DNA from: Octopus sinensis
Lineage: Eukaryota
Assembly (NCBI RefSeq): GCF_006345805.1
Contig: NW_021828383.1
Span: forward strand, 1 to 8,657
Length of the DNA: 8,657 nt
Direction: 5' to 3'
The notes below the pieces were generated by a model, which was given only the letters and a program-made list of their open reading frames with translations, made no database searches and had not been told where the DNA came from. Positions 1 to 8,296 of this stretch are shown one piece after another (the stretch's first letter is position 1; each line of letters begins with the position of its first letter). The translations under genes were made by a program, and so were the position numbers.

Positions 1-3000
1 GTAACAAGAGACAGTGACAGAAATTATGTCCATTGTCCATCTTCTGTGACCAGTTTCACCAGAATCAGTGAAGACATGGTTCTGGCAACCCTCCCCTTCA
101 AGAAATGATTCTTATTATCAGCCCCAAAACCTTCAAGATCAAAAGGATACAGTTGGGGTTACATATGGTGAGTTACTTGGAAGATTCTACACTTATAGGT
201 GTAGAAATGTTTGGTAAGATAGTTTACCAATTTGATTGGGAGGATAACACTATTAACTATCAATTTATTACCAAAGAAACCCCTACAGATATTGCTGTAG
301 GGGTCCAGAATATACTTGTAATTACATTCGCCAGCATCAACAGAGTAATCTGTTACAAACTGGATGGCCAACAGTTATGGGAGGTAGAGACCCATTCTCT
401 GCACCTCCCAAGTAAAATCTCTCTGTACCAAAATTATTTCTATGTCCTCCAGGGACAAATAATTTATAGGATTTCAGCTAAAGGTGGTGTAACAAGGAGG
501 GACGTTGGCAGGAAATGCCGCTCTATTTCTGTTGGTAAAGATACCATTTTGGTAACAGATTATTGTGGCAAACCACATGGTATTCAAATGAATAAAGACT
601 TTTGGCCCAAACTGTCATACAACCACCAGCTACATACCCCCAGTTTAAAAGACTATATTGATATTGAGGATTGCTACAACATTACAAATATTCTACCTAT
701 GTCTACATCTTCTATATTAATAATTTACAAAAACAAGAAAGCTAAATTATTCACTGATAATGGGGAAATAATTAACCAAAATAATTCAGTTTTCTTTGAG
801 CTTCCTTCTTTCTGTTGTAGAATAAACGCAAACAGATTCCTGGTATTTTATCGTGAAAAGAAAGGGTTTCAGTATATCACCTGTCCTGAACTAAGAAAAG
901 GCCCTTTAATAAAGGTGCAAACTGGTTACATGAAAATATGTCATATCGTATCTAATAAGTGTTTAGCTGTGACCACCACTGAAAACAAAAGCGAGGTCCA
1001 TATCCTCTTGATCAACGAAGATAGAGTTGACATTGCAGAAAGAATTTCTCTGGGACATCATAATGTCAGCATTGCTGCAACTCCAATTAATTTTGTAGTC
1101 GTAGATGGAAACGAAAATAAAATGGTATTTTATTCCACATGTGGTGAAGAACTTTTTCAAAAATACCTTCCATTCTATGGCTACCCTCATCACATCTACT
1201 CTGATAATGTTTATTTCTACGTCCTCTTCAAGAGACACTCTATTCTCAGATGTTATGATATATATGGAGAAATTAAATGGCAGTGGGAACTGCCTTTCCC
1301 TGTTCACCCTGACATTACTGTTTTCCAAGGAACTCTTTATGTCCCGGACACTCAACTCAACAGGGTTCTTCTTTACAAGTATCAAGACCGGTCGTCTGGC
1401 TGTTGTTTACCCATTAAAAATCCTTATATCAGAAATCTAAATCTACGACTCAAAGAAAAGGAGAATGACCAAAAACTTCTCATTGGCGAAATATGTAATC
1501 TGTCCAATGGACAGTTAGTGGTGTCCGACATCAACCATGATTGCTTGTTATACATTTCTCAGGAAGGAGACATTGTGTCCAGATTTTCTCTGCCGTCTAC
1601 AGCCACAGATATATGTCGATGGGATTCTAATCATATAGGTATCACATTACCCCTACAGAAACAATTAAGGGTCATCGGAAACCTATCAAAGACAGTGAGA
1701 AGTGTATCATTAAGGCAGCCTTATGTACGGGTGTGTAAGATGGGTGAAGGTGAAATTGTTTGTTATTGTGATAAACCATCACATTTAAACATTTTAGCCA
1801 TCATTTATTATAATCAAGTTGAAGTAATTAAGACAATTAATATCCCTGTTTTTGTGAAATCATTATCAATAGACAAGAAAACAGAAAAGCTATTAATTGT
1901 TACTAAGGAAAAAGTTTTTCAGTACAACACTAGAATAGGTGGTGGTGGTCATGGCGGTCGTCAAATGGTCCCCAGTGTTTTAATGTCCCAAGTGAAACGT
2001 CCCCTCAATCTCCAAGGTGGATCTATTGACCAAACGTTTGTTTATCTGATAGACAGAAGCCGTATGTTTGCCATAAACGATCAGAATTTGTTGGTTAATG
2101 ATCTCGTTACTAATAATCAACTTAATTATTATATCGACCTGGTGGATGTATTTTCTAGAAATATTTCTCTCAGTGAAATGTTGTCTTCCACTTTATATCT
2201 ACAGGACCTGACAGTTTCTGATAAAGCCAGACATATTCCTCTCCCTAAACATTTGGGAGACAAAGAACCAGTGAAGATTAATCATTTGGTTCTTACTGAA
2301 AATAATCTGATTGCAGGATGTGACGAGAAGAATGGAAACATTAAGATATTCACATTGGATGGTCAGCTTTTGGATTCAATAAAAGTGAATGTTTATAAAT
2401 GTATTAGAATGTGTCGATGGCAGTCAAACACACTGGTCATTACGTGTAGGGATCTTTATAATAAACACCAACTGTTGACATTAAAAGTGGAATTTCAATT
2501 GTCGTTGGTAATTTACCAAATGAGAAATAATTATAAATGTGTGGCTTCTTTATCAAACAATCAACTGGTTTTGAGTGAATCGGGAGATGGAAGACATTTG
2601 CATTTTGTTGATATTGATGAAATACATTCGAGTGTGAAGGAAATAAAAAAAATAGACATACCTGAACCATTAATAAGGAGAAAAGAAGATGGAAATTATT
2701 TTGATGACATCCAGGATATTAAAGTTACTGATGAAGATGTCATCATTGTCTTAAACAGGAGATTCATCATTTTCTTCGACAGTGATGGTCAATATTTACA
2801 TTCAGTCAGACACTACATGGAGTATTTTGGTAATGATGACAGGATGACAATTGATGACAGTTTTTTGTACATTTATGGTCAGTGGGGGAAATATTTTGGT
2901 TCACATAAATATCGAAACATTTTGTGTTTGACCCAGAATGGGGAATACAAGAGAATATTCTTGAATGAAAGAATTTATAAAGAAGAAGTATTTTTCGTCA

Positions 3001-4761
3001 GTATAGACTGTAAAGGACCAAGGTTTGTTGGAAGCCCCAGGAGGGTAATGAGAGGGAATGAATTGTATGTTGAAGGGTTGTTTATGGTGAATCGAGACAG
3101 TGTCCCGGTTGCTCGTTTACAAACAGACGAATGTCCTGTTCAAGTAAAAGATTTTGATGTTTCTGAGGAAGGAAAGACAGTTGTGTGTGAAAAAGCCAAT
3201 AATGAAAATGTTAAAATATTCGATGAAGACGGCCAGTTGCTACGTCACAGAAATGTTGCAAGTTTAGTTGGTGGTGTGTGTTTTACACAAGAATCACACA
3301 TAATGGCCACGGTTCCTAAAAGAAAAGAAATATTTCAACTGAATGGAGATTTGCAGACATCTAAAGTTTGGCCAAGTCTCATCCCTTATGGTGTAATATG
3401 GAGAAATGTGGGGGGTATTTACTGGTGTGTACATATTGAATTGATTGAATGTCATTGCATAAAGATTGATGGGGACCAAGTGAACATTCTGGAATCTGTG
3501 TCATTATTAAATCTTGATTCTGGTCTTCGTTTCCCTTCCATTACATCTGAAACAAACAAGGAAATATTCAGTAATGAATTAATTAATAAATTGGAATACA
3601 GAGGAGGAGATGGAGGAGGAAGAAGAAGAGGTAAATCAGGTGAAATAATTGTTAAAGGTAGATTAAAGGTGAGATGTGGTAATTACATAGCAGAGATTAG
3701 TAATTTAGGAATTGATGAAATATCAGTGAGGAGACTTCCATATAGGACAGCAATGGTCCCTTTTTCCATTCCTGCATTCGAGGAACCTGTTGATTATGAT
3801 TTGAGGGACATTAGGGACCTGAACAGTAAACTAATTAAGTTAGATGAGAATGTGAGTGTGTTGATGTTTCGAGAAAGTGTCACATTAATCAGAACAACAA
3901 CAACAACAACAGTGGACATACTTCAACATGAACAACAACAACGACCAGCACTGGACATATGTCGGTGGACAGAGGATGTTTCATTGTCGCCTTGGGAGAG
4001 AAATGAGGGTCTTCAACAGGGATCTCTGTCGTTTAAAAACCATCAGAACTGAGAAATACTACAACAGGATTTATAAATACAACGACAATCAACTCGTGTG
4101 TGGTGGTCATTATATTAGAGACATAACTCAAGAAGAGAGACACAAGAAATACCAAAGAAGATGGAGAAACAACAAGGATTACTATTATTGCATTGACCCC
4201 GACATCTTTGACCCTTATTATGTGGACGTGGTTGATTTCGAAGATGGGAAATGTAAAGATGAAGTGTGTCGTGGGAAGATGAGGAGATGGAGAAGCTTGG
4301 AGGGAGATGAAGGGGTGGATGGAGTGGGAGTCACATCTTTTGGTGATGTTTTTGTTTTGAGGAGGGAGATGAAGGAAGAGGGGTTTGGAAGATGGGAAGT
4401 TTTTTGTTTTGTGGAATGGTTCAGGGAAAAGTCTTTGGTGAGGAAGATAAGAATAGAAGAAAGAATGTTTTATAGTACGGAAGATTATATTGCAAAAACT
4501 GGTCTGATCATAGTTGGTGAATGTGTTTATATAACAGATACAAGAAACAATATTTATGAAATACCTCGACATATTGAAGAGGAAACATCTGAATATGATG
4601 AAATCCTGGGATTTGGATATAATCCAAAATATTTACTCCTCAGATGGGATGATAATGAAGTCTTTGAAGTTCTTGGTTTGGATGTTTCAGACAATTCTTT
4701 TAGGGTTTTTGGAATTATTCCTGGACGTCAACCTTTTGCTTTCTTTTATTTTGACAAATAA
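1..4761 (+). CDS. 5'-truncated, frameshift-interrupted gene for a large multi-beta-propeller (NHL-like, probably six-bladed) repeat protein, >=~1,587 aa after repairing three 1-nt indels
   Basis: Frame 1 is open from 1 to 105 (VTRDSDRNYVHCPSSVTSFTRISEDMVLATLPFKK), then continues in ORF 105..4052 and in ORF 3928..4761, ending at TAA 4759-4761. NHL-type blade motifs recur throughout: GTLYVPDTQLNRVLLY, NGQLVVSDINHDCLLYISQEG, NIKIFTLDGQLL, NVKIFDEDGQLL, IIFFDSDGQYL, RVICYKLDGQQL, GECVYITDTRNNIYEI. A (D/M)xCRW-type anchor recurs with Cys-position codons at ~58, 816, 1614, 2412, 3279 and 3960. The fold call comes from motif recognition, not an HMM search. Confidence 0.8.
105..4052 (+). CDS. Main uninterrupted ORF segment (1315 aa) of the beta-propeller repeat gene; the ATG at 105 is probably internal and the last ~25 codons (after ~3977) are probably out of frame
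   Basis: 3.9 kb without a stop in ~33% GC DNA cannot be chance. Beta-strand-rich NHL-like repeats are present. The homologous module pattern continues upstream in frame 1 and downstream in the 3928..4761 frame. Confidence 0.85.
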   Translation: MILIISPKTFKIKRIQLGLHMVSYLEDSTLIGVEMFGKIVYQFDWEDNTINYQFITKETPTDIAVGVQNILVITFASINRVICYKLDGQQLWEVETHSLHLPSKISLYQNYFYVLQGQIIYRISAKGGVTRRDVGRKCRSISVGKDTILVTDYCGKPHGIQMNKDFWPKLSYNHQLHTPSLKDYIDIEDCYNITNILPMSTSSILIIYKNKKAKLFTDNGEIINQNNSVFFELPSFCCRINANRFLVFYREKKGFQYITCPELRKGPLIKVQTGYMKICHIVSNKCLAVTTTENKSEVHILLINEDRVDIAERISLGHHNVSIAATPINFVVVDGNENKMVFYSTCGEELFQKYLPFYGYPHHIYSDNVYFYVLFKRHSILRCYDIYGEIKWQWELPFPVHPDITVFQGTLYVPDTQLNRVLLYKYQDRSSGCCLPIKNPYIRNLNLRLKEKENDQKLLIGEICNLSNGQLVVSDINHDCLLYISQEGDIVSRFSLPSTATDICRWDSNHIGITLPLQKQLRVIGNLSKTVRSVSLRQPYVRVCKMGEGEIVCYCDKPSHLNILAIIYYNQVEVIKTINIPVFVKSLSIDKKTEKLLIVTKEKVFQYNTRIGGGGHGGRQMVPSVLMSQVKRPLNLQGGSIDQTFVYLIDRSRMFAINDQNLLVNDLVTNNQLNYYIDLVDVFSRNISLSEMLSSTLYLQDLTVSDKARHIPLPKHLGDKEPVKINHLVLTENNLIAGCDEKNGNIKIFTLDGQLLDSIKVNVYKCIRMCRWQSNTLVITCRDLYNKHQLLTLKVEFQLSLVIYQMRNNYKCVASLSNNQLVLSESGDGRHLHFVDIDEIHSSVKEIKKIDIPEPLIRRKEDGNYFDDIQDIKVTDEDVIIVLNRRFIIFFDSDGQYLHSVRHYMEYFGNDDRMTIDDSFLYIYGQWGKYFGSHKYRNILCLTQNGEYKRIFLNERIYKEEVFFVSIDCKGPRFVGSPRRVMRGNELYVEGLFMVNRDSVPVARLQTDECPVQVKDFDVSEEGKTVVCEKANNENVKIFDEDGQLLRHRNVASLVGGVCFTQESHIMATVPKRKEIFQLNGDLQTSKVWPSLIPYGVIWRNVGGIYWCVHIELIECHCIKIDGDQVNILESVSLLNLDSGLRFPSITSETNKEIFSNELINKLEYRGGDGGGRRRGKSGEIIVKGRLKVRCGNYIAEISNLGIDEISVRRLPYRTAMVPFSIPAFEEPVDYDLRDIRDLNSKLIKLDENVSVLMFRESVTLIRTTTTTTVDILQHEQQQRPALDICRWTEDVSLSPWERNEGLQQGSLSFKNHQN
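3928..4761 (+). CDS. C-terminal segment (remainder of the last propeller module) of the same gene; real coding portion starts at ~3994
   Basis: REMRVFNRDLCRLKTIRTEKYYNRIYKYNDNQLVC parallels module D (NNYKCVASLSNNQLVL). GVGVTSFGDVFVL and GECVYITDTRNNIY are propeller-blade-like. The first ~22 codons (MNNNNDQH...) are a shifted reading of the CAA repeat. Confidence 0.75.
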   Translation: MNNNNDQHWTYVGGQRMFHCRLGREMRVFNRDLCRLKTIRTEKYYNRIYKYNDNQLVCGGHYIRDITQEERHKKYQRRWRNNKDYYYCIDPDIFDPYYVDVVDFEDGKCKDEVCRGKMRRWRSLEGDEGVDGVGVTSFGDVFVLRREMKEEGFGRWEVFCFVEWFREKSLVRKIRIEERMFYSTEDYIAKTGLIIVGECVYITDTRNNIYEIPRHIEEETSEYDEILGFGYNPKYLLLRWDDNEVFEVLGLDVSDNSFRVFGIIPGRQPFAFFYFDK

Positions 4762-4781
4762 ATATTTCCAGAAATATTAAA
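4757..4781 (+). promoter_or_regulatory. Candidate polyadenylation signals: AATAAA (4757-4762, overlapping the stop codon) and ATTAAA (4776-4781)
   Basis: Both hexamers are seen directly and are followed by a U/GU-rich tract ((TTC)n(TTG)n, 4783-4823). Such hexamers are common by chance in AT-rich DNA. Confidence 0.35.
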
Positions 4782-4782
4782 C

Positions 4783-4823
4783 TTCTATCTTCTTCTTCTT
4801 CTTCTTATTGTTGTTGTTGTTGT
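4783..4823. repeat. Compound trinucleotide microsatellite (TTC)n-(TTG)n
   Basis: tcttcttcttcttcttctt a ttgttgttgttgttgt. Confidence 0.9.
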
Positions 4824-4825
4824 AA

Positions 4826-4853
4826 GTGGCTTCGCCCGGGAATCGAACCTGCA
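4826..4853 (-). other. tRNA 3'-half-like / Pol III B-box fragment (possible SINE or tRNA-pseudogene remnant)
   Basis: Minus strand reads GCAGGTTCGATTCCCGGGCGAAGCCAC, which contains the B-box consensus GGTTCGANNCC (4839-4849). No convincing A-box or cloverleaf. Confidence 0.4.
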
Positions 4854-4916
4854 TCGCATACATTGCATTCTACACACTAACAATTACTGTTGTAACATTC
4901 CTCAACACACTTTCTT

Positions 4917-5012
4917 TGTGTGTGTGTGTGTGTGTATATATATACAGTATATATATATACATATATATATATATACATATATTTATATATATATATACGT
5001 ACACACATATTT
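4917..5012. repeat. Compound (TG)n/(TA)n microsatellite
   Basis: tgtgtgtgtg...tatatatata...acacacatat. Confidence 0.95.
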
Positions 5013-5081
5013 ACGAATGTATGTATAGAAATAAGGCTATAAACATAAGTATGAACTCACTTTTGAATATATACACATAAC

Positions 5082-5761: not shown

Positions 5762-5803
5762 ATATATATATATATCTATATATATATAGATATATATATA
5801 TGT
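5762..5803. repeat. (TA)n microsatellite with symmetric C/G interruptions (perfect palindrome)
   Basis: atatatatatCtatatatatataGatatatatat. Confidence 0.9.
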
Positions 5804-5810
5804 ATCTTTC

Positions 5811-5950
5811 GCTTTTTCTCTTTTACTTGTTTCAGACATTTGACTGCGGCCATGCTGGAGACGCCTTTAATCGAGCAACTCGACCCCAGGACTTATTCTT
5901 TGTAAGCCCAGTACTTATTCTATCGGTCTCTTTTGCTGAACGCTAAGTGA

Positions 5951-5952
<2 letters not shown>
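5811..5952 (-). mobile_element. 3' half of an abundant Octopus-type SINE, minus strand
   Basis: The reverse complement reads cgtcacttagcgttcagcaaaagagaccgatagaataagtactgggcttacaaagaataagtcctggggtcgagttgctcgattaaaggcgtctccagcatggccgcagtcaaatgtctgaaacaagtaaaagagaaaaag. Its tail is shared with 5082-5133 and its start overlaps the end of 8089-8296. It is flanked by (TA)n on both sides. The family identity is from recollection of octopus repeats, not a search. Confidence 0.75.

Positions 5953-5953
<1 letters not shown>

Positions 5954-5985
<32 letters not shown>
5954..5985. repeat. (AT)n microsatellite
   Basis: Pure AT dinucleotide run. Confidence 0.95.
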
Positions 5986-5988
<3 letters not shown>

Positions 5989-6061
5989 TGCAGTACGTAT
6001 AGGAATGTCTGGTCTGAAACCAGAGACTTTCATAATCATTGATACTCCAATAAAAGGCAGA

Positions 6062-6190
6062 CAACCAACAACAACAACAACACCAGACGACCACCGCCAC
6101 TGCCTCCATCATCATCACCACCACCACCGCCTCCATCATCATCACCATCATCATCATCGTCGTCATCAGCGTTGTGTGTGCGTGTGTGCA
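6062..6190. repeat. Compound trinucleotide repeat (CAA)n/(CCA)n/(CAT)n with an internal ~27-bp-period duplication, followed by (TG)n
   Basis: gcctccatcatcatcacca occurs at 6102-6120 and 6129-6147. Confidence 0.9.
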
Positions 6191-6229
6191 GTCTGCATCT
6201 GACAGTTTTTAACGTTTAATAAGAATAGA

Positions 6230-6316
6230 TTGTTGTTGTTGTTGTTGCAGTGACATTCCAACTGCACACACGCACAAACATTGCCTTTCGTCCTCGTAGG
6301 GTTGTTGTTGTTGTTG
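6230..6316. repeat. Two (GTT)n microsatellites (6230-6247 and 6301-6316)
   Basis: ttgttgttgttgttgttg; gttgttgttgttgttg. Confidence 0.9.
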
Positions 6317-6334
6317 GGGGTTCATACAAAAGAG

Positions 6335-6720
6335 AAGGACACTTTAAGAAGCATTCAGTAAAAGCTTTCCCATAGCTGGTCATTGTTCATGCTAGAAATA
6401 GAAACCAAGTGAATTCAAATTCACATTATTTTTCATATAAAATTTAAAGGACAGCTAAGAACCTTTTATAAATGAAATTGGCCTGTATATGGTCTCATTT
6501 CATGCTAGAAAGAGCCACCAAAGCCTTCACATTTTTTGTTTTATCACACATAAATATCGAAGGACAATTTACAATGCATCATTGTCAAATATTGTCCTAT
6601 AGATGGACTAACATCATGCTAGAAATAACAGCCAAATACTCTAAAATGTGTATCGTTTTTCAGAAAGAAATGAAGGACAGACACATTCAGACACAACTCT
6701 TAAAATATTCTCCTGTGGCA
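6335..6720. repeat. Degenerate tandem repeat, ~113-bp unit, ~3.4 copies
   Basis: AAGGACA at 6335, 6447, 6560, 6673 (spacing 112, 113, 113). CATGCTAGAAA at 6388, 6501, 6615 (spacing 113, 114), each preceded by a cc(t/a)..tagatgg-like motif and followed by ccaa. Confidence 0.8.
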
Positions 6721-6856
6721 GTTTAAGTGTAAAATATTATAAAAGTATGCATCTATGAGTTTTATGTGTTTAAAAATCATAGCAAAGACATCTGTGTATA
6801 TGTAGGTATATATAAATATACATGTGTATAATTGTTCCTTTATGATGTATAAGCTT

Positions 6857-7326
6857 CTTCCCTAATAACTTACAGAAAAATGGACATTGTTCATGGAATT
6901 TCCTACAAATATGCTTCAGATGGTGTAGATTCCGATTCTATGGGGATTTATTGGGAAAACTTTTTTTCTTTCATAACAAAGGCGAATCTTGTGAATTTTC
7001 TAAAACTGCTTTTCCCACCCAGGGTCAAACGGTTTTCACAATGAATTCCGATTTAATCAGAATCTAAACCATCTGAAGAATATTTGTAGAAAATTTCATT
7101 AAAAAATATTTAATTTTGTGAAAGTTGTGAGGAAGCAAATTCGGCATAACTACAGATAGATACCCCCACAGACTTTGTTTCCTCATAACTTGCAGAAAAA
7201 TGGATATTTTTTCAGGAAACTTTCAACAAATAATCGTTTAGTTCCTGTAGATTGAGTTTTTGTAAGGATTTGTTGGAAAAACATTTTCTGAAGTGTTGCG
7301 GAAAGGAGTTTCGCAAAATTCACACA
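6857..7326. mobile_element. Foldback/MITE-like cluster: three copies of a ~160-bp unit in +,-,+ orientation
   Basis: Copy 1 (+, 6857-6968, partial) has ctacaaatatgcttcagatggtgtagattccgatt. Copy 2 (-, ~6990-7140) has the reverse complement ctacaaatattcttcagatggtttagattctgatt. Copy 3 (+, 7174-~7326) shares ataactt(a/g)cagaaaaatgga with copy 1, and tttg.ttcctca.aactt plus ...aaaattcaca with the reverse complement of copy 2. The transposon origin is inferred. Confidence 0.65.
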
Positions 7327-7395
7327 ACCAGACATTTTCCTGTTGTTTCTAGCACACCACCCTCCTTGTCTTCTTCTTTTTTCTCATTCAATATT

Positions 7396-8088: not shown

Positions 8089-8296
8089 TTCAGTCCCACT
8101 GCGTGGCACCTTGGGCAAGTGTCTTCTACTATAGCCTGGGGCCGACCAAAGCCTTCTGAGTGGATTTGGTAGACGGAAACTGAAAGAAGCCCGTTGTATA
8201 TATATATATGTGTGTGTGCCTATGTTTGCGTTTGGCCACGAACATCGCTTGACAATGGATTTTAGTGTGTTTACGCTCCCGTAACTTAGTGATTCA
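8089..8296 (+). mobile_element. 5'- and 3'-truncated CORE-type tRNA-derived SINE (Octopus-type) with internal (TA)n(TG)n
   Basis: It begins with a B-box remnant (ttcagtccc), then ACCTTGGGCAAGT (8108-8120), the hallmark of the CORE-SINE central domain (cf. MIR gtgaccttgggcaagt). An internal microsatellite lies at 8197-8218. The end, cgtaacttagtgattca, overlaps the start of the minus-strand fragment at 5811-5952 (cgtcacttagcgttca). Confidence 0.8.

Follow-up and report, generated by a model that had tools for sequence, protein, structure and literature searches.

The vertebrate TRIM5 and fish finTRIM B30.2 expansions and the NLR clusters are known cases of intracellular sensors that lie in clusters and evolve under positive selection in the ligand-binding domain, and they retain a RING or NTPase effector module; in cephalopod immunity, to our knowledge, few specificity receptors have been identified. 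Among propeller proteins, the TRIM-NHL group (Brat 1q7f, Mei-P26 7nyq, TRIM2 7qrv, LIN-41/TRIM71 6fpt/9jur, NHL-2 8suc) comprises 3-5 conserved genes with one C-terminal six-bladed propeller, and in Brat the top face, made of the b-c and d-a loops, is the ligand face according to PMC4015489. Molluscan RING/B-box-coiled-coil-propeller proteins (L091-L098 of the octopus genome; Potamilus KAK3588083.1; P0072, P0082) have a single propeller, preceded by zinc fingers and a coiled coil, and a B-box orthogroup is expanded in bivalves according to PMC8382680. The nearest conceptual precedent found for the family described here is the set of DED-TRADD-N-WD40 proteins of Branchiostoma and Crassostrea, which PMC8195603 describes as expanded and intracellular, with variable WD40 propellers that lie behind death-fold/TRADD-N domains, are diversified by recombination and are proposed to recognise invader molecules; the same paper credits cephalopods with few or no TRADD-N proteins.

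The window analysed here (the whole stretch of DNA, 8,657 nucleotides, from Octopus sinensis) is an entire 8.6-kb contig that begins inside a gene for a chain of six propeller modules, A to F. The family to which this gene belongs has the six-bladed propeller in common with TRIM-NHL proteins, whose structures rank first among the matches for modules B and D and high among those for A (Z 19-22, rmsd 3.1-3.6), and its variable face is, by prediction, the top face, as is the ligand face of Brat. It differs from TRIM-NHL proteins in having six modules instead of one C-terminal propeller and no RING or B-box that could be found, in an identity of only 10-14%, in scores below the Pfam NHL cut-off, in a top face that is not consistently basic, and in occupying more than 140 places in the genome. 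The molluscan TRIM-like proteins show sequence homology to all six modules, and the eight such genes read here (L091-L098) are single long ORFs, as in the octopus family; relative to them, the zinc fingers have been lost and the propeller hexuplicated, with the fifth copy truncated. In contrast to the DED-TRADD-N-WD40 proteins (as presented in PMC8195603), no death-fold or TRADD-N domain was found in the family. Several propellers per chain also occur in LRP4, LRP2, teneurin, IFT-A, UTP and DDB1, but none of the signal peptide, TM helix, EGF spacers or orthology that would relate the family to LRP/teneurin-type receptors was found. Compared with TRIM5, finTRIM and NLR proteins, the sensor domain is a different one and no RING was found. 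Clustered paralogues, positive selection on the predicted binding face and exchange between copies, the traits of a birth-and-death recognition family, are all present, and as judged from sequence the family appears to descend from TRIM propellers and to resemble a diversified intracellular sensor family while falling outside TRIM-NHL membership. The features of the window are as follows.

1..4761, + strand: coding exon of the six-module propeller gene, stop codon TAA at 4759-4761
1..600, + strand: module A, blades 2-6; six-bladed in the paralogue model; omega 0.27; hhalign 96.6%
97..99, + strand: 1-base deletion (frameshift 1), near 98, from alignment with paralogues
645..1380, + strand: module B, six-bladed, conserved; Brat NHL Z 22.4; hhalign 93.7%
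1443..2215, + strand: module C, last blades low-confidence; hhalign 98.7%, E 1.8e-16
1938..1961, + strand: Gly-rich loop of module C, up to 155 aa longer in paralogues
2229..3075, + strand: module D, six-bladed, with hypervariable top-face loops; 26 selected sites
3111..3752, + strand: module E, truncated propeller (blades 1-3 at 3144-3501, degenerate stretch at 3504-3681, last blade at 3684-3750); hhalign 96.9% over 142 columns
3756..4761, + strand: module F, six-bladed; top-face loops long and hypervariable; 14 sites under selection; hhalign 95.5%
3974..3993, + strand: frameshifts 2 and 3, each a 1-base deletion, near 3975 and 3991
4762..5042, + strand: 3' flank common to paralogues and included in the duplicated unit; probably 3' UTR

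The window copy is a 5'-truncated member of a family whose genes encode about 1,800 aa in a single coding exon; the start of the contig removes about 210 codons (the helical N-domain and the start of module A). Positions 1-5042 are 93% identical in DNA to paralogue L037. The coding sequence is read in frame 1 to about 98, in frame 3 to about 3975 and again in frame 1 to the stop at 4761, and in the alignment with paralogues all three deletions sit in short homopolymers. The extra base near 98 was found at full depth in all three public runs covering the place, and those near 3975 and 3991 in four of four runs, the one at 3975 at about 37-43% of depth. The deletions are likely to be assembly errors, a likelihood rather than a proof because public contigs may derive from paralogues. 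Among the short indels of 23 young copies, a tally that includes alignment noise in variable loops, 65 of 106 were 1-base deletions (36 beside an identical base), a predominance that fits read errors; some frameshifted copies could be true pseudogenes. Downstream, a non-coding block (5954-7340) is 83-90% alike in several paralogues, so that the duplicated unit reaches at least 2.5 kb past the stop. Short interspersed repeats at 5777-5962 and 8089-8295, probably SINEs, recur in both orientations in many fetched loci and lie among microsatellite tracts; tRNA and Rfam scans gave no match.

The earlier note on this DNA, made from the letters of the sequence, had proposed about six diverged NHL-like domains in a row and had aligned six second-blade anchor motifs, all of which are present where it placed them (nt 55 in frame 1; 813, 1611, 2409, 3276 and 3957 in frame 3; 3977 in frame 2 for the second half of the last anchor). 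Its module boundaries lie within about 45 nt of the structural ones, and its B-C and C-D anchor distances are each exactly 798 nt in the window. The B-C distance is 798 nt in 22 of 22 long-ORF paralogues and the C-D distance in 10 of 22; since the Gly/Ser loop of module C varies in length, the equality is partly a coincidence. In L063, L065-L068, L071, L075 and L076 this loop has grown by SSSDGSI- or RGGGHH-type Gly/Ser/His repeats. For structure prediction with AlphaFold2, paralogue L032 was divided into two overlapping halves (mean pLDDT 68.7 and 66.6), and repeated propellers were predicted, as the note had anticipated. Modules A, B, D and F each form a 24-strand six-bladed propeller. Four to five blades of C are confident and its last blades are low-confidence in both models, so that C is only probably six-bladed; E consists of three blades, a low-confidence stretch of about 60 aa and one final blade, about four blades being kept. 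The row of six propellers thus stands for A, B, D and F in full and probably for C, with E truncated.

Fold searches with single modules covered A, B and D. Module B matched the Brat NHL domain at an rmsd of 3.1 over 251 aligned residues (Z as listed above), module D the same domain at Z 21.7 (rmsd 3.6, 256 aligned), and module A matched PknD (Z 20.5) and the TRIM2 NHL domain (Z 19.7). Foldseek matches to multi-propeller proteins had whole-model rmsd values of mostly 23-32 Å, TM scores of 0.12-0.23 and 7-12% identity, and no one-to-one orthology to a known multi-propeller protein was found among them. In a Pfam scan of the window and family ORFs no significant family was obtained and the modules were not NHL hits, the best family member reaching 18.5 bits against Pfam NHL (PF01436; cut-off 20). 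A PDB sequence search gave a best E of at least 0.003, with Brat, TRIM3 and Thin at 0.26-0.39, and the ESM Atlas returned NHL clusters at 0.92, with a recognition score under the reliable range.

The TRIM-NHL-like ancestry of the modules is supported by profile comparison. Scattered over several contigs of this genome are TRIM-like genes (L091-L098, read by eye), each mostly one long ORF, that combine a RING, a B-box or both with a coiled coil and a single propeller. A TRIM propeller profile made from these eight and three database proteins aligned to all six modules in blade register (hhalign 93.7-98.7%, E 2e-7 to 2e-16; reversed controls E of at least 0.24 and under 1% probability), C being the closest of the modules to the ancestral TRIM propeller. 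Module-against-module comparisons were weak, with 5 of 15 pairs at a probability of at least 78% (1 of 15 above 90% in the first alignment). From the profile match of all six modules we infer that the chain arose by repeated duplication of a TRIM-type propeller, a single-propeller TRIM-like unit being its likely ancestor.

No RING was detected in a Pfam scan of 15 family ORFs or in three odd gene models, neither B-box nor EGF was found by Pfam in the family ORFs, and no zinc-finger motif was seen 3-13 kb upstream of 16 copies. The earlier note had also seen no signal peptide or TM helix in the part present, and hydropathy of 11 of 11 full-length proteins agrees (maximal 19-aa mean 1.38-1.89, falling in beta-strands), which predicts an intracellular location. 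In four octopod species the full-length models begin with a helical domain of about 90 aa (pLDDT 33-60 in AlphaFold2), for which Pfam gave no family, the PDB sequence search nothing and the ESM Atlas at most 0.77, a lead only; in the comparison with TRIM proteins, where a coiled coil precedes the propeller, the alignment was limited to the KFRP linker of the domain against the TRIM linker (E 0.026, and 0.18 when reversed). The first 170 aa or so of L031-L049 are of no fewer than three N-terminal types, strongly diverged from one another (20-37% identity), on near-identical downstream modules, and two of the types have the same upstream DNA from about -530 nt relative to the ATG outwards. In one N-terminal subtype a splice acceptor lies 7-8 nt before the ATG, and a distant upstream coding exon is therefore formally possible for that subtype. 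Fusions of family modules with C2H2 fingers (P0012), DUF4371 (P0017) and ankyrin-RING sequence (P0067/P0090), like internally deleted gene models, were treated as probable gene-model artefacts. In P0067/P0090 (O. vulgaris) and in P0076 a divergent module A fragment lies behind MIB2-like ankyrin-RING sequence; P0067/P0090 is probably a chimeric model and less probably a real E3-propeller fusion. Another O. vulgaris model, P0002 (2526 aa), contains B-C-D-E-F twice in tandem and probably represents two adjacent copies merged in the gene model.

A search of the window's own genome with module E gave 150 matches in at least 143 distinct places, a lower bound for scoring that haplotigs may inflate, some small contigs repeating rows of the 15-Mb contig C30 with identical scores. 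Of these places, 62 are on C30 (40 of them within three 1-Mb bins), 12 on nine other large contigs and 69 on 62 small ones. Open frames of 1,700 aa or more contain about 30 of the 150 matches, and many copies carry frameshifts or stops. Among the 60 copies fetched for comparison, intact ones consist of a single ORF of about 1,680-1,940 aa with a low-complexity start, the helical domain and modules A-F, which have a constant order in full-length members. A named record labelled Octopus sinensis is 100% identical to part of paralogue L032. In a protein search 50 of 51 hits were named and all were Octopus; in an exhaustive profile search 22 proteins reached an E of 1e-10 or less, of which 13 were named, all Octopus or Argonauta hians (names were looked up for 25 of the 35 hits, 14 of the 22 among them). 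Weaker profile matches were a Potamilus RING-B-box protein, a B-box-NHL protein, a Mytilus propeller and generic propellers. No member from squid, cuttlefish or nautilus was present among the hits examined, in protein databases that may cover those proteomes incompletely. The family was found in four named octopod species, and with its named close relatives confined to Octopus and Argonauta, the lineage-specific range suggested by the earlier note agrees with these results. Literature searches, those with six LOC identifiers (0 papers) included, gave no description of it, although supplements could list the genes as anonymous orthogroups, nor did the main texts of three cephalopod genome papers (PMC9068888, PMC13218726, PMC9795677); it has gone unnoticed because there is no Pfam hit and annotation reads only 'uncharacterized' or 'hypothetical'.

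In a tree of 29 proteins (midpoint root, with a long-branch warning), an expanded clade of young copies excludes the conserved single-copy members (C2, C10). The window copy is part of this clade and is distinct, its best other copy among the 40 of 145 candidates scored being 92-93% identical in the variable D region. The single-copy members L049 (C10) and L050 (C2) show 88-100% identity in every module, even D and F, when three Octopus species are compared (88-96% between O. bimaculoides and the others), and are candidates for holders of the ancestral, non-diversifying function; the conservation of these members means that the ancestral role may not be immune.

Selection differs sharply along the chain. 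Tree-free pairwise dN/dS in 44 young copies was 0.33 for A, 0.54-0.58 for B and C, 1.21-1.33 for D, 0.78 for E and 1.53 for distal F. Site models were run on 21 of 22 long-ORF copies with gap-flanked columns masked (L040 was left out as divergent; one 21-row set includes L071, the frame of which starts inside module A). Module D had an M0 omega of 1.70 and a 2dL of 490 for M2a against M1a, with 13% of codons at an omega of 10.6, and module F an omega of 1.39 and a 2dL of 276, with 9% of codons at 11.2; for A, B, C and E omega was 0.27-0.70 and 2dL was 0, 25, 24 and 19, respectively. In a recombination null, simulated for D alone (12 neutral simulations with six different segment trees), 2dL was 6-48, which places D and F far outside and B, C and E within the effect of recombination. 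Each third of D was significant when taken alone (2dL 134-147). Diversifying selection is thus confined to D and F, and modules A-C are under purifying selection.

The selected sites, for which posteriors were computed with our own naive empirical Bayes code, concentrate on one predicted face of the propeller (faces were assigned from DSSP strand order, not from coordinates, and some strand limits in F were set by hand). In D, 17 of 26 are on the top face, 1 is on the bottom and 8 are in strands (top vs bottom, p 8e-5), and in F 12 of 14 are on top (top vs rest, p 7e-5); indel columns likewise map to the top face, 21 of 21 in D and 35 of 37 in F. In alignments of both modules, variable spots appear twice per blade on an invariant frame. 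Two copies compared with each other differ at 12-25 of the 26 D sites. Arg makes up 15-18% and Trp 6% of residues at selected sites (background 6% and 1%, respectively). By charge counts, the net charge of the top loops ranges from -5 to +10 in D and from -12 to +5 in F, changing sign between copies; in A it lies between 0 and -10, in B close to 0.

The copies are mosaics, with sequence exchanged between them. Distances in different modules are decoupled (rho 0.16-0.6) except for D and F (0.84), the covariation of which falls to 0.41 (Mantel p 0.023) without five divergent copies; E and F distances do not covary in the core set. Identity to the window is bimodal in module A (52-70% vs 81-97%) and steady in module E (88-95%), which is near-uniform among young copies (dS 0.03). 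In a dispersed young copy, L099 (G000:C3:171017000-171026999, ORF 3752-4984, minus strand), blade 1 of C joins blade 2 of F, with D and E gone, a junction that looks like recombination between homologous modules.

On balance, the family is rather likely to serve inside the cell as a sensor repertoire for foreign molecules, probably those of pathogens. In each copy D and F would form a pair of binding surfaces peculiar to that copy and would hold a ligand in the cytosol, for instance an effector or a capsid protein of a pathogen; the homogenised half-propeller E could serve as a spacer between them. The conserved modules A, B, C and E would act as a chassis and, together with the exchangeable helical N-domain, would pass the binding event on to an unvarying partner in the host, and tandem duplication and exchange between copies would renew the repertoire. 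Since a RING is lacking, its role would be that of a sensor or an adaptor rather than of a ubiquitin ligase itself, and no known effector or signalling domain was found in the family. Of the multivalent recognition or immune-type scaffold that the earlier note envisaged, the scaffold agrees with these results and an immune role may be inferred, but six-fold multivalency is improbable because only D and F diversify. A bolder form of the sensor reading, to which we would give slightly less than an even chance, is that octopods have a cytosolic immune repertoire of their own, built from a TRIM propeller and made up of more than 100 mosaic genes, in each of which a unique D+F clamp with antibody-like loops, spaced by the half-propeller, is set on a constant chassis, with no RING, NTPase or death domain; no description of such a repertoire in any animal was found in the literature searched.

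Tandem amplification, homogenisation and positive selection would leave the same signature if D and F bound fast-changing selfish elements (transposon proteins, drivers) or gamete proteins, and tandem testis gene arrays are other cases of families in germline conflict. TRIM-NHL relatives such as Mei-P26 also work in the germline according to PMC9070667; this origin is nonetheless the unlikelier one, at perhaps one chance in several. Recognition by D and F of differing RNA sequences, from viruses or transposons, in the way in which the top face of Brat reads mRNA, is suggested by the nearest folds being RNA-binding NHL domains and by the Arg and Trp at selected sites, but the top-loop charge of D and F varies in sign while TRIM-NHL RNA binders are predicted to be electropositive on top (PMC4015489), and the swing between copies argues against one fixed RNA target. 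With Glu also frequent at D sites (13%), an RNA repertoire appears distinctly improbable. Octopuses have expanded protocadherin arrays, and with its combinatorial diversity the family might supply a neuronal or tissue code of cell identity or self-recognition that would operate intracellularly, below a layer of diversified receptors at the surface; the absence of a signal peptide or TM helix in the proteins scanned and an omega near 11, which points to antagonistic coevolution and not to a stable identity code, leave this very little probability. Least probable, and already largely refuted, is neutral amplification of a decaying segmental duplication or carriage by a mobile element or a co-sequenced parasite: the frameshifts or stops in many copies would fit it, but the long open frames, the purifying selection in A-C together with site-specific positive selection in D and F, the presence of copies on chromosome-scale contigs and in four octopod species, and family ORFs free of transposase, RT and capsid domains (two probably chimeric models excepted) all count against it.

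If the sensor reading is right, an omega near 11 on two defined faces in so large a family points to an unrecognised arms race, and the D and F variants would be directly testable targets for a ligand search. The family also shows how one TRIM propeller may have given rise to a chain of six modules that divides labour between constant and variable modules. Within this chain the half-propeller E is conserved from Argonauta to Octopus, its truncation recurring, as judged by eye, in Argonauta and in the C2-type protein.
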